Of a stretch of DNA of 64,000 bases, positions 1-20,318 are shown one piece after another; within the stretch, counting starts at the first letter, position 1; each line of letters opens with the position of its first letter. Below the pieces are notes generated by a model. The model was given only the letters and a program-made list of their open reading frames with translations, made no database searches and was not told the origin of the DNA. Both the position numbers and the translations under genes were made by a program. Where the stretch lies: positions 1 to 64,000 of the forward strand of contig NIVC01001446.1 of NCBI GenBank assembly GCA_002269645.1, given 5' to 3'. The stretch comes from Macrostomum lignano (taxonomy: Eukaryota).

Positions 1-464
1 GCTAAAAATACGGAGCCAAAGAGGATGAAATTTTGATGAGCCACCTGCTTATGATGTTGATCAAGCTCAATTGAGAGTTGCAGAGATTAGGGCTGCAGAT
101 CGGGGTAATCGGGTAGAATTTCAAGAGATGCGCCACGTAGTATTGCTGTGACAGATTTAGGTGTGGTAATTATCGAATTGGTGGAGTTGATAAAAATCGA
201 AATGAACTATATAGAATTGGGTGGAGCATTTAATATTATTACGAACCCTAGGGTAAATTTAACCCTGATTTATATACTAGAGACGAATTAGTAAGTGCTA
301 AAAATTTTTACGATGAGTTAGGAGTAGCCCATGTTAAAAATACCAGCTTGTATAAAAGGATTGTTAATTCTATAAATAACATGCCGGCTGTTGGTGAAGG
401 ATTTAAAACTCCTAGAAAACTTGTTTTAGCTGCCGCGAAAGCTGCTGGACATACAGGTATTTAA
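1..464 (+). pseudogene. Frameshifted 3' part of a Maverick ORF of unknown function
   Basis: Protein-like segments in shifting frames (FDEPPAYDVDQAQLRV; GKFNPDLYTRDELVSAKNFYDELGVAHVKNTSLYKRIV...GHTGI*, stop 462-464). Confidence 0.45.
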
Positions 465-491
465 TTAATTGTTAAATTTATTTTTTATAAA

Positions 492-1094
492 ATGGAATCT
501 AAAAAGATTTGTACTACGTGTAAAATTGAGAAACCGATGACTAAAGAATTTTTTTGTTGGAGAAATGACACAAAAAAAATTAAAAATCTTTGTCGATCTT
601 GTGAGAAAGTTAAATGTACTATGTGGAGAATAAACAATAAAGATAAATGTAATAAATATGCAAAAAATAAATATCGCACTGATGAAAATTACAAAAATAT
701 TAGTCTAATTAGAGGTAGAATAAATTGGGCATTGAGAACTTTTCATGACAAGCATTATATCTCCTATCTTGGTTGCACAAAAGAATTCTTTTTTGATTGG
801 TTAAATTTCACAAGAAATTATTATGTTCCAAAAAATTATACTGGAAAGTTAGATATTGATCATTTCATTCCCGCTTCTTCATTTAGTTACAAAGACGAAG
901 ATCAGATTAAAAAGTCTGAAAATTGGAGAAATAAAAGATACTTAACTAGCGTAGATAATAACTATAAAAAAGTTAAGCAACCAACCATTGAAGAATTTGC
1001 AAAACAATTGGTGCTTTCATGTATTTTTAAGGCTATTAAAAATGAGCGATCATGCGACGCATGCGAACCGAAGGTTCGAACAATTAGTATTTGA
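492..1094 (+). CDS. Free-standing HNH-type (homing) endonuclease with N-terminal Cys4 Zn finger
   Basis: CxxC...CxxC N-terminus; YLGC..EFF..WL, LDIDHFIPASSF, N-W-R-N and DN..K motifs typical of phage/NCLDV HNH endonucleases; own AT-rich upstream region (ttttttataaaATG). Confidence 0.8.
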   Translation: MESKKICTTCKIEKPMTKEFFCWRNDTKKIKNLCRSCEKVKCTMWRINNKDKCNKYAKNKYRTDENYKNISLIRGRINWALRTFHDKHYISYLGCTKEFFFDWLNFTRNYYVPKNYTGKLDIDHFIPASSFSYKDEDQIKKSENWRNKRYLTSVDNNYKKVKQPTIEEFAKQLVLSCIFKAIKNERSCDACEPKVRTISI

Positions 1095-2648
1095 AGGAGG
1101 ATTGTTAGATGTTCAAAAAGGATTAACAAGCTTACCACCAATCTTTACTACTGGAAGGTATACAAATGAATTACACATCCCGTCTTACAACTTCGCAGGT
1201 TAACCCGTGGCCTGAGTGAGGAAGGCAATGTCCTTGCTAGTCACTATTTGTGGCGACACCTTCAAATTGCGCGAAACCCGTCATACAGCTTCAAGTACCA
1301 CTTCAATTGAGAAATCTTTTGAAGGAACAGAGGTAACTCCTCTTCCCAAAGGTAACAAGCTTGAAGACACGGTGGCAATGCGCAGCCAAGCTCCTAAGTC
1401 GGCAGATATGGAGAAGGTTCAGAGAGCAGACGGAGGTGGGCGGTAATTTATCCGCTTAAGGTGTGCTCCAGCCTATTTCGAAAGATTTAGGGCAAACTGC
1501 CGGGTACTAGGTTAGATTTGAGATTAAATCCTGATAATACACCAAAAGCCGATTCAATTCCCATTAACGGTATTGATTGGTTAGCATACTATCATGACTT
1601 AGCATACAGAGATGCTGATAAGAACTCACCCGAGGAAGCATTAAGATTAAAACATGAAGCTGATAGAAAAATGATTCAAGGATTAGATAACTTACAGGGG
1701 TTATCGGTAAGCCAAAGATTAACTCGGTGGATGGTTAAAAAAATCTTACAGTCTAAAGTTAAATTTGGATTGGGAATTAATTACAATCAACATGGAAATA
1801 ATTGTGTTGAGTGTTTATTATTAAGTGGCGGCGGGTTAAGTTCTGATGAGGCAAAGATTCTTCATAAAGAATATCGAAAACCTAAATTTTATAGAAAAAT
1901 CATGAACTTCAAAAAGAATGAAATTTGGTATGCTGATTTAATGTCGATGCCGAACGAAAGAGGATATAAATATATCTTAACCATATTAGATGGTTTTACT
2001 CGATATGCGTGGGCTGTTCCTTTAAAATCCAAAAAAGGAGAGGATGTTGCGGCTGCTTTTAGAAGTCTTGGAGAAAAAAGTGAAAGGTTGTGTGTTGATG
2101 AAGGAAAAGAATTTTACAATCCTCATATGTATAAATTATATCATTTTGAAAAAGGACAAGAAAGGAAAAAAGACGCGAATGGGGAGTATATTAATAAAAT
2201 TTATTCTATTTACGGCGAAAGTAAAAACGCATTAATAGAAAGATTTAATCGAACTTTAGGTAAGAAATTGTGGTTTCAATTTAGTCTGAATGGAAATCAA
2301 AAGTGGGTAAAAATATTACCAGACGTTGTGAAAGATTATAACAATTCATATCATTCGGCTATAAAGATGACTCCTCAACAAGCTTATAACAATCCTGAAA
2401 AAGTTAAAGTTACTTTTGGAGAATTTGAAAAAAAGAAAACTAAAGGTTTTAAGGTTGGTGATTCTGTTTATATCTATAAATGGAAAGATAAGTTTGAAAA
2501 GGGAAGAAAAGGATATTGGAAAATAAGTGAGAAATTTACTATCAGTAAAGTTTTAAATACCAATCCTACAACCTATATAATTGCTGATAAGGACGGTGAA
2601 GAAATATTGGGTTCTTTTTATGAGAACCAGCTAATGTCTGCGAACTAA
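1042..2648 (+). CDS. PLA2-like domain fused to Polinton DDE integrase; join(1042..1200,1500..2648), about 435 aa
   Basis: Spliced junction reads ELHIPSYNFAG|PGTRLDLRL followed by IDWLAYYHDLAY and HEADRKM (parvovirus VP1u/adintovirus PLA2 motifs); integrase WYADL, CVDEGKEF, IERFNRTL and C-terminal FKVGDSVYI...YENQL; start codon position uncertain. Confidence 0.88.
1201..1499 (+). ncRNA. Group I self-splicing intron, subgroup IC1, 299 nt, no internal ORF
   Basis: P1 CAGGU(1196-1200)/GCCUG(1210-1214) with U.G at the 5' splice site; P3 1257-1263/1432-1438; P4 UGCGC/GCGCA; P5abc with GAAA loop; 11-nt receptor CCUAAG(1393-1398)...UAUGG(1407-1411); P7 1422-1428/1464-1469; P8; P9.0 AG/CU; omega G1499; removal restores the reading frame. 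Confidence 0.95.
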
Positions 2649-2898: not shown

Positions 2899-3213
2899 TT
2901 ACATAAAAATTTCAATTTCATTCTCAGAATCACTGGTTTCATATGAACTATTTGTTGATTCGGAATCTGTTGATCTAACCTCCCAATCATCCGAATTTAA
3001 ATAATCTCCAAGTTGAAATATTAACTCTCCCTCTTGTTCTAAATCATACATCTCATCTAACTCTAATGGATAAAGTTTTAGGTCATGTTTATCGTCATAT
3101 TTTAAATAAACTTCATCAATTATTCCGTTCAAGATATGTTGTTTTATTATCTCTGCATTTTTAGCAACAGTCTCAAAAGTATCACTAACAGAAAAGGTGT
3201 AAACTCGGGTCAT
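2899..3213 (-). CDS. Acidic 104-aa Maverick protein of unknown function
   Basis: Intact ORF with AT-rich codons, ATG preceded by aaaa, Ser/Glu-rich tail. Confidence 0.55.
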   Translation of the reverse strand: MTRVYTFSVSDTFETVAKNAEIIKQHILNGIIDEVYLKYDDKHDLKLYPLELDEMYDLEQEGELIFQLGDYLNSDDWEVRSTDSESTNSSYETSDSENEIEIFM

Positions 3214-3303: not shown

Positions 3304-3552
3304 ACGATACAAAATAGCCAGCAAACCAAAGCGTTCGACGAGAGCGTGTTCTCACCATTCAAAGAGAATTAATCGTTGTAAGTGTGAAATGACTTGTTTG
3401 ACCGAAATGAAGCGAGGATGAGCGAAGCGAGTTGAGCGAAGTGAAGACGAGCGAAAATGAAGGGAAAACAAGTCATTTCACACTGATAAAGGGTTAAATT
3501 GTTTGCAATGGTGAGAACGGTTTGCTGGCTATTTTGTATCGTATATACTACT
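3304..3552. repeat. Maverick terminal region with nested internal inverted repeats
   Basis: Perfect inverted pairs 3304-3327/3519-3542 (24 bp), 3348-3359/3507-3518 (12 bp), 3381-3399/3466-3484 (19 bp); terminal ACTACT. Confidence 0.8.
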
Positions 3553-4497
3553 GGACTCGCTGACAACCTACCTGGATAGGAACAGTGATTTCTGCATTGT
3601 CAACGTCAGCACAGCCAAGTCAGTAGATGTGCAATACGAATATGTGGAGCTCCGAGTTGCTATGTAGGTTTGGTGCTCAGGTTCTTTTCACTTTGTATTC
3701 TATGCTGATAGGCAATACAAGTTTGTCATGCATTTCAAACTGCAGCGAAGGACAGCATTCTGTCGTGAACCTCATGCTGCTCGCCATCTCCTCTTTGGTA
3801 TTCCGATTGCCGCCGGAATGCGGCGAGAGAATGTCACTGAGCGTCACCATCGTGCTGTCGATGTGCGTGTTCCTGCAGCTCACTGACAATTACATACCAA
3901 CTCAAGGAGATTCTGTACCGCTGCTCAGTGAGTGTCGCGGCCGGACTCTTTTATTTTATTGAGATTAAAAATAGTGTCTGTTGAATAAGGACCTGCTCCT
4001 GTGAAATTCTGCAGGCTGGTACTTCAGCATCGCGGTACTTCTGACCATGGCTAATCTGGTTGCTAACGCCTTCGTTCTGAGTTGCCACTTTGAGCAGTTT
4101 TCTGAGCATGCTCGAGTCCCCAATCGTCTGACTCGGCTGCTGTTTCTCAATAGATTCGTCTGCGGGCGCCGATTTTGTCGAGAGCCGTCCAGAAGTAAAA
4201 ATTTTAACAGTGTTGCGCAACGAAGCTCCATCGGAGTAAGTGTTCGTTTACTGCTAGTGCCGTTTTATCAGGAGAAGCCAAACCAAATGTGTCACGGTCC
4301 CACAGGTCAGTGATGCTGACAGCAAAGAAATGAGCGACATCTCGTCGCGACGAACCGTCAACTTCGACTCGCAGTTGGAGCAGCCTTCGCGTTGCCGGGC
4401 CACTGATGTCAACAGCTGGAGCGCTGTCGTGGCCACTGCTGACCGCTGCTTTTTCGCGATCTTTTTCGGCCTGACGCTGGCTTAGATTCTGCTATGA
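3553..4497 (+). pseudogene. Cys-loop receptor subunit copy 1, 3' half, interrupted by the Maverick
   Basis: DSLTTYLDRNSDFCIV matches copy 3 DSITKYLARNDEFCI; TM1-TM2 exon 3746-3927 with small deletions; TM3-TM4 exon from 4015 with a frameshift near 4305 and TAG at 4483-4485. Confidence 0.85.
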
Positions 4498-5083
4498 GTA
4501 GCGTGTCTGTCTGACAGTTAAAAAATAGTTTCTTGAGTTTAGCTAATAATATATCCTTGGTGACATACTTCTCATACTTTTTTTGGCAGCCATAGGCCTG
4601 CAGCTGCCCCATCAAAATGCTTTAATTTTTAATACGCACTCCACAACAAAACCTAATGCGAGTGAGCCACCCTCTGTGCAATTAGTGGTCTGTAACTACT
4701 TTGTCAATTACGTAAATGGGCTTTGAGCAACGTAGAGGTAATAAAACCTACTTAGCTGCTCCGTAGCGTAACTACCTGCAAACTCTATTTGTCAAAAATT
4801 CAATAAATAGTCTTAACTCTTTTTATAAATTTTATTATCTCAATTTGTCTTCGCATCCAATAATAATTGCCCCTATCGGGTTGTTAACGGGCAGGAATTT
4901 ATTGGCTGCAGCTCAAGCTGTCAACGCTTTTAGAGGTTTTAAAAGAGAAATAATTACCGAGGCAGACTCTACCGGGATGTCCAAGTTGGCTGGGGAAGTG
5001 GGGAATGGAGGGGCTGCAACTGCTGGATAAATAATGAGCCCAAACCACCTGTCTGAGCCGCGTCCAGACTCCAGCTCATTAGC

Positions 5084-7550
5084 ATGCCGCAGTCTCCGCT
5101 ATCAAGCTTCATAGTTTTCTTGCTCTGCCGTGCCGCGGCGGCTGCCTCAGTGTCCCCGGATGAGGCCCTGAAAACGGCGCTGAATTTAAATTCCGACTAC
5201 AACAAAGACGTCCGGCCGCCACCGGACAACGGCTCAGCCAACTTGGTGACCGTCTTGTTCAACTTGAAAAGCCTGGCTCATGTGGTGAGTACTTCGGCTT
5301 TGTCGATTTTTTGTGAGAACAATGTTGAATTTTCGAGCAGATCGTGAGCATTAAATTATTTCTAACCAAACAATGAAGGACTCGGCAACGCAGGAGATCG
5401 TGCTGCAACCCTGGTTCAATTTGGTACGTGACTCATTCTTTTTATTAGAGGCAGGGGGGTTGTGTGCACCCTGGCGCAATTTAAGCGACATAGGCACACA
5501 ACCGGCGAGAGGCATTACTGCCCATTCCGCCGATTCCCCTGAGCAGGCATACAAGCGCGCGGATACGTTACGCAGGCACACACTCACACAGGAGTGTACA
5601 GCGGCACCAACATTATTTATTGTTAGGCATGTACACTTCACTGCGCCTTGGGGGGGTTGGCTCTCAAGGCCGTTAATTGCACAAGCGAGCCAAGCCAAGA
5701 TTCCAATCCAGCCCCAAATTAATGTGGCTGCACTTGGAATCGAGCCTGGGTCGCGGCACACCAGAGCAGCTGCGCTACCGCTGGGCTACGGCCCCCCCTG
5801 TACGTGACTCATAAGTTCAGTGCTGCCGCAGAGACATTGACATATCGAGTTTTATTGCATCATACTCACGGTGCAGCCATGAGCTATCGATTCATTTAAT
5901 TTGCACTTTCACTACAGTACTGGCGAGACAGCCGCCTGGCCTGGAAAGGAAAATTCAACTCTACCTTCGATAACGTGAGCTCCATTTTTGTACCAGCCAG
6001 TCTGCTCTGGCAACCGGATGTGGCCTTCTGCAACCTGTAAGTGCGACACTTTTTCCTTGGGCTTGATCATTCCTATGCAATTGCAGCCATACCGCTTTGA
6101 CAAGTCTCCCAATGGCACCCCGATTGTTCTCTTAGAGAAACTTCAAGATAATGGACTAACGGTGACATTCATCTAATGGTACTCATGTTGACCTTTCTCA
6201 TACTCACCTTTCAGCCTGCACTTCCGGCGCACCTCCAGCGATAAAGTTTTCCTGACTGTGAGCAGCGACGGCATGGTGCTGTTCCTTGTTGAGCTGCTCT
6301 CCAGGTCCAAGTGCGAAATGAATATGGCCAACTTTGCCTATGACACGCAGATCTGCCACCAGCGCGTATCTTCAGTGGTGCACACGAGAAAAACCACTGC
6401 GCATCGAGCCTGGACCACCTGGAATCACGCCTTCCCTCTTCAAGAACCACGACTTCTGCGTGATGAACGTCAGCGTTTCAAATTCTATCGATAAGTGGAA
6501 CTAAGATATTGTTCAGCTGCAGGTGGAAATAAAGGTAGAAACTTCTCAGAATTTGGTTGAGTTGGAACGGGGATCAGACGCTTTTTGTGGACTCCCCTTT
6601 CATAGTCCCCGTTTTATCGCAGAGCCAGTTTCACCTTTGACACTTTCAGCGTAAAGCACTATTCTACTTCATGAACCTGATCATTCCGAGTCTCGTGCTG
6701 CTCTACATCTCTACCCTGGTCTTCTGCCTGCCGCCCGAGTGCGGAGAGCGAATATCATTGAGATTCACCATCGTGCTGTCTATGTGCGTGTTCCTGCAGC
6801 TCAGCAGCAACTATATGCCTCCACAGGGGGACTCTGTGCCTCTGCTCAGTGAGTTTCGAACTAATTTCACTCCAACACTTTGTTCGCTGATAGTGAACTA
6901 CAGACTGGAATATTGTGACTCATGACCTATTTGTCCTCCTCCAATTTCCAGCCTGGTACTTCAGCCTCGCGGTCTTTCTGACAATGCTTCACTTGATTGC
7001 CAACATTTTCGTACTGAGCTGCTACTTTGAGCATTCGTCCGAGAATGAGCATACCAAAGTCCCAGGCCGGCTAACGCGACTTCTGTTTCTCAATAAGTTT
7101 GAATGCGCCCGGCTGCAGTGCAGAATGTACTACCAGGTTCGAAACCACGGCGAAACCGCCGCTGTACGGAGCTCGGTGAGAGTAAGGGAGATACGGAGAC
7201 CTGGGTTGGATTTTGTTAAGCCTGCCAAGCCTGTGTCGGATTTGGCAGACCTGCAAGTTTCTGTGTCCATTTGCGGTTAAAAATTGGCACCCCATTCGCA
7301 GGAATCCAACGAGAGCGAGTTGAACGTCGTCTCGCCCAGGCGACCAGCTACGCCAAGTCAACCGCAGGCGGAGCAGACTCCGCGTTACCGAGACAACGAC
7401 CCTCGCAAAGAATGGATCCCCATTGTTGCCGCCGCCGACCGCTGCTTCTTTGCTGTCTTCTTCAGCCTGAAGCTGGCGCTGACGCTGACGCTGTTAATCC
7501 TGGAGATCACGAACTCGCGGACCAACTGCGACATGTCGAGTAATGATTGA
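5084..7550 (+). pseudogene. Cys-loop receptor subunit copy 2, probably disabled; exons 5084-5284, 5379-5423, 5918-6036, 6215-6534, 6650-6848, 6952-7550
   Basis: Signal peptide, WRDSRLAW, WQPDV, Cys-loop CEMNMANFAYDTQIC, LPPECGERIS; frameshift in A-run 6389-6393, in-frame TAA at 6502-6504 and 7278-7280. Confidence 0.85.
5437..5799 (-). mobile_element. tRNA-derived SINE (family 1), full length
   Basis: Minus-strand head with A box TAGCCCAGCGG and B box GGCTCGATTCC; A-rich tail; 13-bp TSD GTACGTGACTCAT at 5424-5436 and 5800-5812. Confidence 0.85.
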
Positions 7551-8499
7551 AGATGAAGAGTTGTGAAGAACTGGGCAGTCACGACCACGAAGTATTTTGG
7601 ATTAACAGAGACAACTTCGAGTTACAGATGGACTTTAGATAGTCGGAAGAGTATATCCGAAGAAGGAATATTTATTTATCCTAGGAAACCGCAATGAATA
7701 CTATATTTTTAACAGCTGCACAAACTACTACTAGTGCTACTCGTTGCAAATTAACCTACAATAGGAAAGTCCTATAAAATTCTATCACCTTTGACGCAAA
7801 AGAAGCATCACTCACTGACTTTGATGCACTTTTTGGGATCAGCAAAAAGCGGTCATGCTGATTTTATTAATTGAAAGTTTTTGAGCCAACTGACTATGTA
7901 GCTCGTGTCAAAGCAAACGGACAGATTTTATTTGCTCAGCGAATCTCTGTTTGTTAATAACTATCAACGATTGACTGAAAGCTCAAATATGAATAGGATT
8001 ATGAAAAGATTCTGACAGCGGGCCACAAGGCTTGAATCAGAGAGAATGAGTAGAATGCGTTTAGACTCTCTGGGAGCTAGCGAGGAGAAAAACAAAGAAG
8101 AGAAATTGGCACATAAAAAGCAGATACCTGCAAAGACAGGCGATTTAACGTGCAGAAAACGTACAATTCTGAACATTGGAAGGGTGGCCCAGGGAGAAGC
8201 GTGATGTTATATAACGATATGCATATATGCAGTTTTAGTGAGCCACGACCAAATTTGATGGAACAGAGTGCTTTGCCAAGCAAGGTCGGGCCAACGGATC
8301 CGGGCAGAAGGGTAAACACTGAGGCCAGGGATGTGGAACTGACTGAGATGAGTGGATTCTGAGGGATAGACGAACGGAAAGCACTGCCACTAAAAAGTAT
8401 ATAGGATGGCCTGCATGACCAGTGGTGGATGCAGTTAAACCCACAAGACTTCAGCTGAAATTCTAAGCAATTCCGTGCGACCAGGGCTACTGATCTCAC

Positions 8500-10968
8500 A
8501 TGCTGCTACTAGGCCTAATTTTGATCTGCGCTGTCACCGCGACCGCCACGGTGCCAGATGTCTCCTCTGATGAGCGAATTGCCGCGGCACTGCGCTTAAA
8601 GTCTGCCAACGGCTACAACCCGGATGTGAGACCGCCACCGGATAATGGGACGGCTAATCTGGTCCGGGTGCACACCAATTTTAATAGTCTGGTGGCTGTC
8701 GTGAGTTTTGGACGATATCAACTAATGAACTCGACATATGTACGCAAATGTTCCCACATTTACTCATTAATTATTCATTATTTCTGCTGTTCAGAATTCC
8801 GCATCTCAGGAGGTCAGTCTACTCCTGTGGCTTACACTGGTAAGACATATTTAGAGACCGCGAATCCCTCTCTAATGTTCTGCAGATTTTTCAGGATCAG
8901 CAACAGGTAAAAAGTCATCAACTTTTTTCCAGTCCTGGACGGACCGCCGACTTTCCTGGCACGGTCGCTTCAACGACAGTTTGGACAGCGAGACGGCGGT
9001 CTACTTTCCGGCCAGGCTGCTGTGGCTACCGGATGTGTCTTTCATCGATCTGTGAGACCGGGATGTGTTCGTTACCATTTTGATTCTCACTAGCTGCTCT
9101 GTTCTACTAGGTAGATACTCGTTAATATAAATTATATATCATATTTATATTATATATTATATATTATATTTATATTGATATTTATATTAATATAAATGAA
9201 AAAAATCAATGAGTCCATTGGTTGTTTATACGAGTGTACAGTCTGCAATGTGGATACCCACTTTGCTTTTGTATATTCCTCTAACTGGTAAGTAGAAGCC
9301 CTCTATAGAATATTACTGGGACTTTGTACAACATTTTTCTTGCGGATTCAACGAGTTGACGATGCGGCATTACTGAAGCATTTTAAGAGTAAGCAAATCG
9401 TGCGCCTGAACTGCATGGTTAATGGAAGCTCTAATAGACGTTACTAAACTCAAGAACAATAAAGAAGCAATCCACATGATGCTTGCAACGTTACACTGTC
9501 CAACCAAAACTTGCAGCTTGTTCATACAGCGGGTGTCATTTAGCAACGCAATGGCTCACGTTAGCTCTCAGGGATCGGTAATGTACACCTCCCAGTACGT
9601 GATTACCAGCAAGTGCCCAATGAGAATGTTCGAGTTTCCCTATGACAAGCAGCGCTGCGTAGTGCCCATCTCGTCAGCCATTCATTCGAAGCAGGTGCTG
9701 GCTTTGCACATCGGAGCCTACCTAGAGAACGACTCCATCACGAAGTACCTGGCCCGCAACGACGAGTTTTGCATTACAGGAGCGACAATCAGGAAGACTG
9801 CGGACTACTACTTTGATATTCTGCAGTTTGCCATCACTTTCAAGGTAAGAATATTGCGTCTGTATCTAACAAATTTAATTGGCTTGCAAAATTTTTAGGC
9901 AACATCACGTTCCAATATTTTTTTCAGAGACGGCCCATTTTCTACGTGATAAACCTAATCCTGCCCAGCCTCCTGCTGCTCGCCATCTCCACCGTCACCT
10001 TCCGACTGCCGCCGGACTGCGGCGAGCGGATGTCATTCAGCATCACCATCGTGCTGTCCATGTGCGTGTTCCTGCAGATGGTTAACGAGCACACGCCCAC
10101 GCAGAGTGAATCCGTCCCTCTGCTAAGTGAGTTCTGTGGACATAAGTCCAGAAATCTGCTGCAGTTAATTGCACAGGAGTTGTCACTCGACAAAGAGCGA
10201 TATAAATCTATTCGTTTATAATTTACGTTTATGTTTATGAAAATGATTGGTAATGATTTTTGAGTGACAACAGCTAAGTTACTCAAGTCAAAATTCGCAA
10301 AAGAAATTTAGCTATAAACTTAGAGTGGCTTGGGTTATCACGTTCTTTGTTGAGTTGTTTTTTAATGCGAGTCTATCTGCATACCAGACGACCTTGTGAA
10401 TGAATGACTGCATACTTACTTGCCGGACCTCGTAGTTTGTTGTTTATTCTTCTTATAAATGCAGCGCGAGCTCCGGCATCCTTTACTTGTACCCACGGCT
10501 TTGTATGTACCACTTCCTCTCGACGTTATCCCACTCGATTTCAAATTTTTCTCATACGCACTCGCCCACTCTCTTCTATTTCCTGGTCCAGCCTGCTACT
10601 GCACTCTGGCGGTGGTGATGACAATGACCGTCGTCTTGGGCAACGCCTTCGTTCTCAGCTGCCACAGCCGGTGTTGCCGCGCCGCTCCCCCGGGACGTCT
10701 GCTCCGGACGCTGTTCCTTCACTCGTTCGTCGCTCGTCGGAGCCGTCGGCAGCCGGAAGCCGACGGTTCAGTCCGGCAGAGCTTGTCGCCCGACAACGAG
10801 TCTGAGACCGCCTGCGAGAACGCTCTGCGCTGTCAATGGAGCACCATAATTTCAGGCGTTGACACCTGCCTGTTTGCGTTCTATTTTGGCATTACCGTGT
10901 CTTTGGTGATAGCACTGGCCGCTATTGGACTTGTTACAGATGGCCAGAAGTGCATCAATGAGGACTAA
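8500..10968 (+). CDS. Cys-loop receptor subunit copy 3, intact; exons 8500-8700, 8795-8839, 8933-9051, 9517-9844, 9928-10126, 10592-10968
   Basis: Consistent intron phases; Cys-loop CPMRMFEFPYDKQRC; TM1-4 with LPPDCGERMSFSITIVLS; no vicinal Cys-Cys. Confidence 0.9.
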
Positions 10969-11261
10969 TTAGTTGCGGAAAGAGGAATCTAGAGTTGCAA
11001 CTTAAAAATTACGCGTTAACGCTTGCGTCAAGTCGATGGTTCTCTGTTCCGCTCCCTAGACCAGCATATGTGATTCTTTCGACAGCTTTTATCAAGTCAC
11101 AGTTAAACAATAGCAATGTTCAAAATGTCTATGGTAATTTAGTTCAAGGCAATGACATTCATACAATGACCGGTCATTGTTTGGAATTTTTAGAAGTGGT
11201 ATAATTTTTTAAGTTAACGCGTATATTTTAAACTTAACATATAACAATCAAAAGCACACTT

Positions 11262-14921: not shown

Positions 14922-15674
14922 TCAGAACACGGACTGGCACTCGCAGATGTACTTGCGAGCACTGCTGCAGGAGTCATCGTCAACGCCTCCAGTTGAATAG
15001 CCATGCCAAAGATTTGTGCACTCCAATGACGCAGGACCGTTCGGCTCTCCAGAGTGCCATACGCTGGCGTTCACGGGCAGGTTGCAGGCGGCCCAGAACC
15101 AGTCAGAGTGCGCATTCGAAGTTCCAGATCCGCCAAGGAAAAAATCAGACGAGCTGCCCATCAGCTGCTTCAGCGACCTCAGGTGCAGAGCCTCATCAAG
15201 GTCGATCGCATCAGAGAACTTGGTCAGTCCGGGATCCGCACTGCAGGTCAGGTTGGCGTTGTTCCAGGTGAGTGTCACCGACGTGACCACCTTGTACGAT
15301 GTGCCGTATCTCGTGTGCTCGTATCCGGACGGACACAGGCGACCCGGAGGTACGCCGGGCAGAGACCTCACATACACAGTCACCTGGTGAGTGCAGCTCG
15401 GCACAGACTGCACACGGTGACTGCACGCATCGAACAGGAACAGCTTGCACTGACAGGCTCCAGCTGTCAGCACTGAGAAGGCCTGACACTTGTCCTTCCT
15501 AGCGCAGGCGAGGCTGCATTCGAGCGGAGTGCACAGACCGGACACGGTGCTGGTGAAGTCGGAGCTCACGCAGTCCAGTCCGGTGGTTTGGTGGAATTTC
15601 AGCCTGGCAGAGCTGCAGGACTCGGACAGCACCGCAGGGACCCACAGCAGCAGTAGAAAAACACAAAGCTGCAT
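14922..15674 (-). CDS. Secreted C-type lectin (N-terminal PAN/apple-like Cys domain + CTLD), EPN type, intronless
   Basis: Signal peptide, TWNNANLTC, FFLGG, WHSGEPNG, DDDSC..ARKYICE. Confidence 0.88.
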   Translation of the reverse strand: MQLCVFLLLLWVPAVLSESCSSARLKFHQTTGLDCVSSDFTSTVSGLCTPLECSLACARKDKCQAFSVLTAGACQCKLFLFDACSHRVQSVPSCTHQVTVYVRSLPGVPPGRLCPSGYEHTRYGTSYKVVTSVTLTWNNANLTCSADPGLTKFSDAIDLDEALHLRSLKQLMGSSSDFFLGGSGTSNAHSDWFWAACNLPVNASVWHSGEPNGPASLECTNLWHGYSTGGVDDDSCSSARKYICECQSVF

Positions 15675-18988: not shown

Positions 18989-19611
18989 TTGTCGCTAAAC
19001 AAAAGCAGCTCAAGTTCTGCAGAGCAGAATACAGTCCAGCAAAGAAACAGTGGGGACAGAGTCCAGCACACTATTCACACGCTGGCGCCCTCTCCAGTGA
19101 GCTCAAGCCTTACCTTGACGGTCTAATGGGACCATCTCCGCCTCACCGCTTCTCTACAGAGCCACTCCACCCGCTGTTAAAAGCTACAGTTTAGTTACCA
19201 TGGCAACTTGACTGGGGGGGGGGAATTTCTGCCGCAAAACAGCTGCTTTGAAATTTTGGTTGGGTGAGGCTGTCTTCAACAATGGGGCTGTTTTTCCTTT
19301 CAAAAAGAAAAAACTTTCTAAGAAGGCATTTTGGCAGGATCCAGACAGATGCATTTTGTGACAGCGCTCATAATACGCTCGCACATAAGAATATATTTGT
19401 TGGGACTCACGTATTCTACGTGTAAGGCAGCTCCTAAAGTAACTTTTTTCAGTAAATTAAATGGACAGATTAACGATAGATCACGGAAAATTAGAAATGG
19501 TAGATAATTTTAGTAATAAAACATAGCTAGAGAAACAAATAATTGTACTCATTAGGCTGCTTTTTCCAGTGGAGTTTCCAGCGTTCAAAGTTTTTTAATT
19601 TCCAACCGGCT

Positions 19612-20036
19612 CAGGGCGTAGCCAAGGTCTTTCATTGGGGCCACATCGTGGGGGCGTCATCGTGGCGGCTTTAGCACCAGGGGCTTTAGCACCAGGGGCT
19701 TTAGCTCCAGGGGCTTTAGCACCAGGGGGCTTTAGCACCAGGGGCGCCAGCACCAGGGGCGCCAGCACCAGGGGCGCCAGCACCAGGGGCGCCAGCACCA
19801 GGGGCGCCAGCACCAGGGGCGCCAGCACCAGGGGCGCCAGCACCAGGGGCGCCAGCACCAGGGGCGCCAGCACCAGGGGCGCCAGCACCAGGGGCGCCAG
19901 CACCAGGGGCGCCAGCACCAGGGGCGCCAGCACCAGGGGCGCCAGCACCAGGGGCGCCAGCACCAACTGGCAAGGGAACGCCAGAGTTTTGGCACTCCTT
20001 CGGCCTCCCTTGGCGCCCACCCCGGCTACGGCCCTG
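19612..20036. mobile_element. MITE-like element with CAGGG terminal inverted repeats and internal 15-bp tandem array
   Basis: cagggcgtagcc ... ggctacggccctg ends; (caccaggggcgccag)n inside; no clear TSD. Confidence 0.6.
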
Positions 20037-20318
20037 CAATTTTCCATAATATTTCTGTTTATAGTTTTCCATAATATCCGGATAAATAGAGAATATATCG
20101 CGAATATCTATCTAGTATCTAAGCATTGCTAAAGCTAGCCTTAAATCAAGACTGCGACTACACAAAATGGTACTCTGTATTGTAAGAGTGGTGCATGCAA
20201 TGGAGAGCTACAATGGAAAATTTTGCTGGTGCCGAAAGTTTTAGTTCTTTTTCAGATGGCCTAAGATTCAAAATGGCCCTGTTAACTATTGTATCAAGAG
20301 AAGTTGTCGAAGGCAGTG

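Follow-up and report, generated by a model that had tools for sequence, protein, structure and literature searches.

A group I intron splits an otherwise purged GGNCC site in Maverick elements of Macrostomum lignano and may shield it from an Eco47II-like nuclease

Results

Organization of the locus

The window, that is, the whole stretch of DNA that was analysed, comprises the first 64,000 nucleotides of contig NIVC01001446.1 (assembly GCA_002269645.1) of Macrostomum lignano, and the features of the locus are listed in Table 1. The element carrying the locus is a Maverick, with a pPolB gene, an rve integrase gene, an A32-type packaging ATPase (found in both families described here) and terminal inverted repeats, and the genes in the host flanks are of animal type (ligand-gated ion channels and a C-type lectin). 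Two families of elements were compared, with a protein identity of just 25-67% between them. A Pfam match to the double jelly-roll capsid was obtained in family 2, and this capsid shares 27% identity with an ORF of family 1. A description of family 2 as an integrase-only transposon was dropped, the element being a full Maverick.

Table 1. Features of the nuclease-intron locus (positions in the window)
Feature	Position	Strand	Remarks
Unnamed Maverick gene, 3' part	1-464	+	Upstream of the nuclease slot; conserved there in most copies
A/T-rich gene-start motif, TTAAATTT...AAAATG	471-494	+	Likely an element-type promoter or leader, a putative function
HNH-type endonuclease gene, free-standing	492-1094	+	200 aa; N-terminal Cys4 zinc finger, C-terminal DH...N...N core
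Exon 1 of PLA2-like/rve integrase gene	1042-1200	+	Final codon Gly, directly before the splice site; intronless alleles continuous
Group I intron, ORF-less	1201-1499	+	Presumably IC1-like (P2.1, P5abc); terminal G at 1499
Intron landmarks	1210-1214; 1267/1380; 1422-1428/1464-1469	+	Guide sequence; P4; P7
Exon 2 of PLA2-like/rve integrase gene	1500-2648	+	First codon Pro; remaining PLA2-like domain, fused to rve integrase
104-aa ORF near element end	2899-3213	-	Without family match (Pfam, PHROG)
Maverick terminal inverted-repeat hairpin	3304-3542	.	Host DNA beyond; GC step

The reading frame that a preliminary description had assigned to an HNH endonuclease was confirmed; between its end and the 5' splice site (1200/1201) lie 106 nt, and the ATG at 1042 falls within it. 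A gene-start motif like the one upstream of it is also present ahead of the PLA2 gene of family 2 and of the nuclease ORF encoded in the intron. The two exons share one frame in natural intronless alleles, and the product of exon 2 gave a weak PLA2-like match (E = 0.022) as well as a match to rve integrase. The family-1 locus was surveyed in 138 copies, 150 of 483 candidate exon-2 matches being scored; because copies are related, copy counts do not equal independent events.

The group I intron

The intron matched RF00028 with 60 bits (gathering score 50, E = 8×10−15) in a 501-nt search, and it was missed in a gathering scan of the whole window, as were the introns of L070, L105 and L123 in an Rfam scan of 10 loci. 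The corresponding scores were 85.2 bits for the family-2 form, 80.6 bits for a metagenome form and 30.5 bits for the type B intron. P1 contains a U.G pair at the 5' splice site; all pairs are formed in P2, P2.1, P4, P5, P5a, P7 and P8, P7 including the G-binding pair, and compensatory changes among four intron variants preserve P7. The subgroup, which we take to be IC1-like, was assigned from motifs, and MFE folding of the intron was not significant (z = −1.5). Only one ORF of at least 60 aa has an ATG within the intron; at 72 aa, it is a translation of the RNA core. The long intron of locus L122 was considered as an ORF carrier and rejected, its extra length being a foreign insertion.

Judged from its sequence, the intron is likely self-splicing. 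The window copy ends in omega-G; among 105 anchored type-A introns of family 1, 80 have a terminal A in place of the canonical G, so many copies may splice poorly. Contigs of three presumed-RNA runs and one other run contained no exon joint across the intron; the known intronless alleles were also absent there, and these data are evidence neither for nor against splicing.

The HNH-type endonuclease

The HNH protein gave no informative match against Pfam or PHROG, a word-index homolog search with the single protein as query found nothing, a PDB sequence search found only Hpy99I (E = 0.009), and the ESM atlas returned viral clusters without names, HNH clusters appearing only below 0.9. A profile built from natural HNH copies retrieved 16,260 relatives, and H124, N147 and N156 were invariant across 96 aligned sequences. 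In a check for the beta-beta-alpha-metal fold, the AlphaFold model (pLDDT 91.8) had strands at 120-124 and 148-152 and a helix at 153-159; the top Foldseek rows were almost all HNH domains, each of them weak (best E = 0.048), and VIA placed the zinc-finger part of Hpy99I first (Z 5.8), with Cap5 and BrxU at Z 4.1-4.6. The protein looks functional, and the earlier report of a group I intron that lacks an ORF, beside an HNH-type gene, is borne out.

Elsewhere, close HNH relatives (P0023, P0172 and P0174) share their reading frame with the core of the same intron type, and the tail of these introns is nearly identical to that of PD-(D/E)xK-bearing introns (P0183); among the best 150 HNH relatives, one reads into the intron core. 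Scans of viral contigs with HNH gave only distant relatives, with no intron at the HNH gene in the five loci examined (L230-L234).

Two unrelated nucleases alternate in one slot

The slot beside the intron contained a nuclease gene in all 138 family-1 copies and was never empty or double. The tenant was HNH in 101 copies and an Eco47II-like PD-(D/E)xK nuclease (hereafter PD) in 37. The intron is nearly fixed (135/138), and the combinations were HNH with intron A (81 copies), HNH with intron B (17), PD with intron A (30), PD with intron B (7) and HNH without intron (3), nuclease class being independent of intron type (Fisher's Exact Test, p = 0.81). All three intronless copies, two of which are near-identical, carry HNH, two with intact ORF and motif. 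PD and the intronless allele did not co-occur in family 1, which with three intronless copies is not significant (p = 0.56). The divergence of HNH was correlated with that of the intron at rho 0.14-0.19, compared with 0.38 for the more distant upstream gene. Catalytic motifs were retained in 68/70 full-length HNH ORFs and in 26/26 full-length PD ORFs, and dN/dS was 0.35 for the HNH core, 0.23 for PD and 0.55 for the HNH N-terminus, which is mosaic and fast-evolving. Diversity of the exons peaks within 10 codons of the insertion site, with third-position pi of 0.33 and 0.31 compared with 0.07-0.29 elsewhere.

These distributions bear on the collaborative homing proposed in the preliminary description, in which the HNH enzyme and the ORF-less intron would spread together. 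The adjacency of the two stands (98/138 copies), the absence of the nuclease from intronless alleles does not, and the suggested check on co-occurrence showed that HNH reassorts largely independently. Because HNH reassorts and sits in all three intronless copies, its collaborative homing with the intron is doubtful. HNH is probably not the partner of the intron; as regards a target at the insertion site, the evidence favours the Eco47II-like tenant. As the alternative tenant, it is likely a free-standing homing endonuclease with a target of its own.

The Eco47II-like nuclease inside and beside the intron

In family 2 all 12 loci that were fetched hold an intron of 880-895 nt at the same insertion site, with a PD ORF located in the P2.1 loop. 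A PD gene was found upstream in 24 of 49 family-2 exon-2 matches, and intronless junctions were present at 12 distinct loci. The family-2 intron is thus of the mobile group I type, with an endonuclease ORF in a peripheral loop and both intron-plus and intron-minus alleles. The same intron, at the same site and with a PD gene inside, was found in a metagenome contig (L235), and 11 of 20 database homologs of PD read in frame into the core of the intron. One PD copy (L294) has no PLA2 gene beside it, and scans of viral contigs found no close relatives of PD or of the PLA2-integrase. In the PD tree the free-standing copies are nested among the intron-encoded ones (support 89/87), and an AU test for the direction of PD movement gave p = 0.136; P0003 was counted as intron-encoded by eye in the tree and left out of the AU test.

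The intron-encoded PD matched Pfam RE_Eco47II (PF09553) with 27.1 bits, above the cut-off of 25.9, and the free-standing copy scored 20.6, below it. The residues G45, E49, D65, E76 and K78 of the E...D...ExK motif were invariant in 23 sequences. In the structural model (pLDDT 89.6), PD has a restriction-enzyme fold: the best VIA match, and the sole row with Z of at least 8, was EcoO109I (Z 9.6, rmsd 3.7, 166 aligned), and Foldseek gave EcoO109I with E = 9×10−4 and AvaII at rank 4. EcoO109I and AvaII are listed in PMC7337904 with the recognition sites RG^GNCCY and G^GWCC, and an Eco47II homolog is assigned to GGNCC in the portion of PMC10305163 that concerns it. From family, fold and the site avoidance described below, we infer that PD is a predicted GGNCC cutter.

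Distant PD homologs on giant-virus-like contigs had an adjoining C5 methyltransferase in 14/18 loci, two of which were confirmed by Pfam. No cognate C5 methyltransferase, the second component of a type II restriction-modification system of this type, was found in the Maverick elements, and a search of the same genome with a giant-virus-type query matched three non-element loci only. The search covered the C5 type; a very divergent or non-C5 enzyme could escape it.

GGNCC is purged from the elements

Any Gly-Pro codon pair spells GGNCC. At the insertion site this sequence is intact in intronless alleles and split by the intron between Gly and Pro. Elsewhere it is nearly missing, with 7 sites compared with 143 expected in nine family-1 elements and 1 compared with 42.4 in three family-2 elements. 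Among 256 gapped words GGNCC ranked first by avoidance in 8/8 elements, and the next-lowest 2+2 gapped palindrome was at about half of its expectation. Over about 263 kb of family-1 loci, GGNCC occurred only at three intronless junctions and at six positions in or at a foreign insertion, and a family-2 element had none over 16.8 kb, with a sharp return in the host flank. The host DNA in the window contained 114 sites compared with 148 expected.

The Gly-Pro count was 0 in six intron-bearing elements, compared with 4.9-8.2 expected. Codon shuffles indicated that composition fails to explain 0 compared with 16 sites in two distant families; a shuffle restricted to synonymous changes sometimes also reached 0 GGNCC, which counts against the explanation favoured below. 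Five other Maverick elements retain 5-38 sites, these controls being mildly depleted (observed/expected 0.3-0.8), and in one of them (C754) GGNCC is the lowest-ranking word (5 compared with 16.2). Carriers of HNH were purged as much as carriers of PD. No second purged short word that would mark HNH as a frequent cutter was found, expectations for 3+3 gapped words being too low to judge.

Discussion

Intron and site loss as protection from a short-site nuclease

The purge, the GGNCC kept at the intronless junction and the missing methyltransferase together suggest that a short-site restriction enzyme is likely both homing enzyme and weapon. We consider it probable that the intron, by splitting the sole remaining Gly-Pro/GGNCC, shields the Maverick from the Eco47II-like enzyme and spreads with it, HNH being an alternative tenant of the slot. 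If two elements met in one cell, the PD enzyme would cut a related element that lacks the intron at the insertion site, which is often the only GGNCC it has, and repair from the intron-bearing copy would duplicate the intron (and the enzyme gene), giving a 5-bp cutter the behaviour of a homing enzyme. DNA that is unrelated and rich in sites, such as that of a rival or helper virus, of Mavericks of other families or of the host, would be shredded. Self-protection would rest on the intron together with site avoidance, and the PLA2 loop would regain its Gly-Pro only at the RNA level. The idea, already put forward for this locus, of a weapon against which the intron guards fits these data. With the intron near-fixed in family 1, HNH likely spreads by intronless homing or marker exclusion, replacing what the slot of another copy contains, and the intron may still protect HNH carriers from PD carriers. 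Counting against a mechanism based on PD, a 5-bp cutter would be expected to damage host DNA.

A fuller scenario, for which we see slightly better than even chances, is restriction without a methyltransferase: the Maverick would have captured a giant-virus GGNCC enzyme, purged GGNCC and Gly-Pro and hidden one indispensable Gly-Pro behind a self-splicing intron, with the cutter acting as homing endonuclease and antiviral weapon, intron-encoded, free-standing and HNH-replaced stages coexisting, and active group I splicing of protein-coding mRNA from a virus taking place in animal cells.

Other explanations

Homing driven by HNH, which would cut the allele lacking the intron at the insertion site or close to it, with the intron blocking self-cleavage and both spreading, appears doubtful to us. 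Its relatives inside introns whose tails match those of PD-bearing introns are in its favour, as are the mosaic N-terminus and the observation, in the account of PMC2988022, that intron-encoded enzymes cut within ~25 bp of the insertion site. The exon diversity peak flanking that site also agrees with it, but is equally explicable by co-conversion from PD-driven homing. All intronless family-1 copies carry HNH, mostly intact, although resistant junction variants are possible; HNH tracks the intron less closely than the upstream gene does, intron-reading forms are rare among its relatives, and few intronless targets are left.

The source of the purge could also lie in an outside cutter, supplied for example by a giant virus acting as helper or rival, or by some other partner, with its own Eco47II-type restriction-modification system. 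To survive it, the Mavericks would have lost GGNCC while retaining the intron, and the captured nuclease would be a passenger or altered in specificity. The REase+MTase pairs among the nearest distant PD homologs, the equal purge in HNH carriers and the mild depletion in other Mavericks are compatible with this explanation. We regard it as improbable, given that a PD nuclease under purifying selection lies inside the very intron that splits GGNCC in two host systems and that other Mavericks of the same genome are unpurged; it would in any case alter the source of the pressure and leave the shielding role of the intron intact.

A further explanation assigns the slot nucleases viral roles (packaging, host DNA degradation) unconnected with the intron, regards the intron as a passenger that became fixed at a conserved site and attributes the word bias to composition. 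It is very improbable, because the codon shuffles leave the deficit unexplained in two distant families and two unrelated folds interchange within the intron as well as in the slot. In its favour, free-standing HNH genes of this family occur commonly in viruses where no intron was found close by, a Polinton-like virus HNH is proposed as a packaging aid in the relevant part of PMC12220804, and one PD copy lacks a neighbouring PLA2 gene.

Implications

An endogenous virus in the nuclear genome of an animal has one of its protein-coding genes interrupted by this intron, in more than 150 copies. If GGNCC is cut by the enzyme, this would represent a new means of self/non-self discrimination, in which an intron and genome-wide site loss replace methylation, and a frequent cutter would owe its homing-level precision to the genome rather than to a long recognition site. 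With the nuclease inside the intron, beside it and replaced by HNH, together with natural intronless targets, all in one genome, the long-debated transitions between free-standing and intron-encoded enzymes become testable with natural sequences. The locus also testifies to frequent recombination and conflict among Mavericks, an argument for their behaviour as co-infecting viruses.

Relation to known systems

Collaborative or trans homing is described for phages (Bonocora and Shub 2009; Zeng 2009; T4 mobE), as summarized in PMC2988022, PMC3984707 and PMC11296320. In contrast to these accounts, the present locus belongs to an endogenous virus of a eukaryote, residing in the genome of an animal; its slot is occupied alternately by two unrelated nucleases; and the best-supported partner is of restriction type, its predicted 5-bp site being one that has to be avoided throughout the genome. 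The homing introns of giant viruses such as Bodo saltans virus, as presented in PMC5871332, are similar in that they lie in essential viral genes, mask the target of a proposed weapon against co-infecting relatives and have ORF-less offspring relying on trans-homing. Their enzymes are given there as HNH or GIY-YIG, whereas here an Eco47II-like enzyme resides in an integrating animal Maverick of ~16 kb. Protist Polinton-like viruses, according to the sections of PMC12220804 on their introns, likewise carry RF00028 introns (~300-380 nt) in small integrating DNA viruses of nuclear genomes; those introns occur in cryptophyte, rhizarian and chlorophyte hosts, in a short gene upstream of the capsid gene and without an assigned nuclease, whereas here the host is an animal, the gene is a PLA2-integrase and a nuclease is identified.

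PD shares the PD-(D/E)xK motif, Pfam family, fold and predicted GGNCC site with the type IIP Eco47II/EcoO109I/AvaII group, giant-virus copies included, but no cognate methyltransferase was found here and protection is apparently by site loss plus the intron. I-Ssp6803I is likewise a restriction fold adopted by a group I intron; it reads a 17-bp site in the description of PMC3424549, whereas the evidence here points to a kept 5-bp site made unique through the genome purge. A parvovirus-like PLA2 domain (PLA2X) is described for adintoviruses/Mavericks of animals in PMC8502044, while in the present elements the PLA2 domain is joined to the integrase and interrupted by a group I intron; the mention of introns in the corresponding passage of PMC8502044 concerns group II maturases.

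Structure of the locus and its intron

At its start the window lies within the right end of an integrated Maverick in the animal genome (assembly G000, 764 Mb; contig C1446), and the flanking host genes matched neurotransmitter-gated channels and C-type lectin. The ORF map bore out the preliminary description in that the HNH ORF extends over the ATG at 1042 and stops 106 nt short of the intron (position 1201). The group I intron that it had reported was likewise confirmed, with a model match of 60 bits (E = 8e-15) and paired core helices: P1 contains a U.G pair, P2, P2.1, P4, P5, P5a, P7 and P8 pair, and P7 is fully paired despite sequence differences between the window, family-2, metagenome and type-B introns. 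The presence of P2.1 and P5abc points to subgroup IC1. Comparison with natural intronless copies placed the intron in an FAGPG loop, where it separates the codons for Gly and Pro. The exon 2 product comprises an rve integrase and a PLA2-like stretch, which was weakly matched in the window (E = 0.022) and had a match of E = 2e-8 in the related metagenome contig L235. A motif shared by several genes (listed below) suggests that the nuclease gene is a cassette with its own promoter.

Coordinates of features in the window and in other fetched loci (L)
Feature	Position	Remarks
Motif TTAAATTT...AAAATG	window 471-494; L158, L152, L160	upstream of element genes and the intron-encoded ORF
HNH ORF	window 492-1094	200 aa
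Type-A intron	window 1201-1499	
Long terminal inverted hairpins	window 3304-3542; L164:6989-7437	
Tandem ligand-gated ion channel genes	window 3600-11000	host cluster
C-type lectin gene	window 14922-15674	
GAPGA-type repeat ORFs	window 19595-20072	
A-ending type-A intron (example)	L043:1192-1508	
Type-B intron	L105:1555-1915	23 other copies
Foreign insertion, ~835 nt	L122:1000-1830 (G000:C249)	P8 region of type-B intron; inverted ends
Family-1 fragment	L294 (G000:C1063:100000-105500)	PD gene, then, in place of PLA2-integrase, several Cys-rich, RING-like ORFs
Endonuclease_7 (His-Me) domain	L163:72-1754; L296:73-1536	pPolB-region ORFs, both families
PriCT-2 / D5-type primase-helicase	L295:5949-8444	family 2
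F5/8 type C (discoidin) domain	L162:3694-5739; L295:2851-4197	fibre-like ORFs, both families

Two nucleases alternate upstream of the PLA2-integrase gene

From 483 candidate exon-2 matches 150 were scored, of which 140 belonged to family 1 (that of the window) and 138 of these kept exon 1; the copies are relatives of one another, in part identical, and their counts are not independent events. All 138 had a nuclease match in the slot upstream of the PLA2-integrase gene, either HNH or an Eco47II-like PD-(D/E)xK nuclease (PD), and none had both. The combinations were HNH with intron type A (81) or B (17), PD with type A (30) or B (7) and HNH without intron (3), intron type being independent of nuclease class (Fisher p = 0.81). 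Free-standing PD is an ORF of 161-177 aa unrelated to HNH, often with its stop at the same -106 position. Among 51 intact copies with HNH and intron A, the distance correlations were 0.14-0.19 for HNH and intron, 0.26-0.32 for HNH and exon 1 and 0.38 for upstream gene and intron; by these values the HNH cassette is exchanged between backgrounds more readily than the modules beside it. In the 16 distinct PD copies every module pair correlated (0.33-0.77).

Searches of Pfam and PHROG gave no name for the HNH ORF. A profile of 17 natural variants matched 16,260 proteins at E<=0.001, which marks a family widespread among viruses. H124, N147 and N156 were invariant in 96 sequences, the structure model was confident (pLDDT 91.8), its Foldseek rows were nearly all HNH domains (each weak, best E = 0.048) and residues 1-43 resembled Hpy99I in its zinc-finger part (Z = 5.8). 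The motif gives good, and the fold moderate, support for the predicted HNH identity. Full-length ORFs were present in 70/101 copies, 68 of which kept the motif; the N-terminal half is a mosaic, and its dN/dS (0.55) exceeds those of the core (0.35) and exon 2 (0.09).

PD matched Pfam RE_Eco47II, and the best structural match of its model was EcoO109I; AvaII was one of the restriction enzymes next in rank. The Eco47II-type site is GGNCC (PMC10305163) and the EcoO109I- and AvaII-type sites are RG^GNCCY and G^GWCC (PMC7337904).

A second Maverick family in the same genome (family 2; 25-67% protein identity to family 1 and different gene order) also carries the PLA2-integrase gene, with alleles ~98% identical in exon 2. 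PD was found upstream of exon 2 in 24/49 family-2 exon-2 matches; all 12 fetched loci of this type have a long intron A (880-895 nt) whose P2.1 loop contains the PD ORF, and intronless alleles were seen at 12 distinct loci. One intronless copy (L161, G000:C1874) is preceded by a truncated copy with exon 1 and the 5' intron part. The PD-in-intron arrangement recurs at the same insertion site in L235, and 11/20 PD database homologs read into intron core. In another system, HNH proteins P0023, P0172 and P0174 and PD protein P0183 have a nearly identical intron-core tail, which indicates that both folds alternate inside the intron too. Distant PD homologs adjoin C5 methyltransferases at 14/18 loci in giant-virus-like contigs; a search of the M. 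lignano genome found no such giant-virus-type gene in Maverick elements. In a tree rooted on giant-virus-like restriction-modification enzymes, free-standing PD was nested among intron-encoded PD, and the alternative was also compatible (AU p = 0.136).

Depletion of GGNCC

A Gly-Pro codon pair always contains GGNCC. Nine family-1 elements had 7 GGNCC sites versus 143 expected, six of them in two intronless elements (two being junctions) and one in C757; three family-2 elements had one, a junction, versus 42 expected. Compared with codon shuffles, GGNCC ranked lowest among 256 gapped words in 8/8 elements and then in 5/5 further ones, and intron-bearing elements had no Gly-Pro versus 4.9-8.2 expected in each. 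A 16.8-kb family-2 element had no sites, which came back sharply on entering the flanking host DNA. A further five Maverick elements in this genome, from outside the two families, retained 5-38 sites (0.3-0.8 of expectation), with GGNCC still the lowest-ranked word in one. The survey found no second purged short word in the elements, so HNH is probably a long-site enzyme. In element C3967 the sole non-junction GGNCC sits in a long terminal inverted hairpin. Six sites lie in or at the L122 foreign insertion, in which no nuclease ORF was found.

Intron variants

A terminal G is near-universal in group I introns. In family 1, 80/105 anchored type-A copies end in A with the G-binding pair unchanged; exon 2 was open for 130 codons in 63 of these 80 and interrupted in 17/80 versus 1/25 of the others (p = 0.066). 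A self-splicing intron without terminal G is reportedly known, from a title in the references of PMC5423948. The type-B intron (Rfam 30.5 bits) has the same 5' site as type A and shares P2, P2.1 and P5abc with it and therefore looks chimeric, its core motifs being presumably IE-like. The Pro of Gly-Pro is missing from the exon downstream, and Gly-Pro is lost in the only frame-preserving reading that retains nearby codons, which would be a second escape route.

Proposed mechanism

We consider it fairly probable that the intron and PD, a predicted GGNCC cutter, combine homing, weapon and self-protection in purged elements. PD would cut GGNCC; as the elements lack all other sites, cleavage of an intronless relative would fall wholly or for the most part at the insertion site, an intron-bearing copy would serve as template for its repair (homing), GGNCC-rich DNA would be destroyed, and the intron would stand in for the protection normally given by a methyltransferase. 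Damage to host DNA by such an enzyme and the many A-ending introns are difficulties for this mechanism. In family 1, with the intron close to fixation and the PD gene outside it, this would be collaborative homing in the sense of the preliminary description with PD as the partner. The description had assigned this role to HNH, which fits poorly with the weak linkage between HNH and intron and with the finding of HNH on 3/3 intronless family-1 copies; for the same reasons its target may rather lie elsewhere nearby. A target near the insertion site, as suggested by intron-encoded relatives and an exon diversity peak <=10 codons away, seems unlikely. The interpretation in the preliminary description is supported in part. 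HNH would likely be a second homing-type gene competing for the slot, and we infer that the stronger and stranger system is the GGNCC enzyme-intron pair rather than the HNH-intron pair.

Relation to known systems

Earlier papers describe collaborative homing in phages (PMC2988022, PMC3984707, PMC11296320), endonuclease introns as weapons in a giant virus (PMC5871332) and group I introns in protist Polinton-like viruses (PMC12220804), and a review has nuclear group I introns restricted to rRNA genes and almost lacking in animals (PMC10964413). In the literature covered (main texts, with few subscription journals; including 10.1101/2023.08.22.554363, PMC8502044, PMC3424549 and PMC2441816), neither an animal Maverick with a group I intron nor a short-site restriction enzyme paired with an intron and a purged genome was found to be reported. 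The intron homing variant would be new, and the self-protection logic is possibly new as well. An Endonuclease_7-type domain has been reported in some nematode and oomycete Polintons. At least four further Maverick families, GC-richer, are present in the M. lignano genome.
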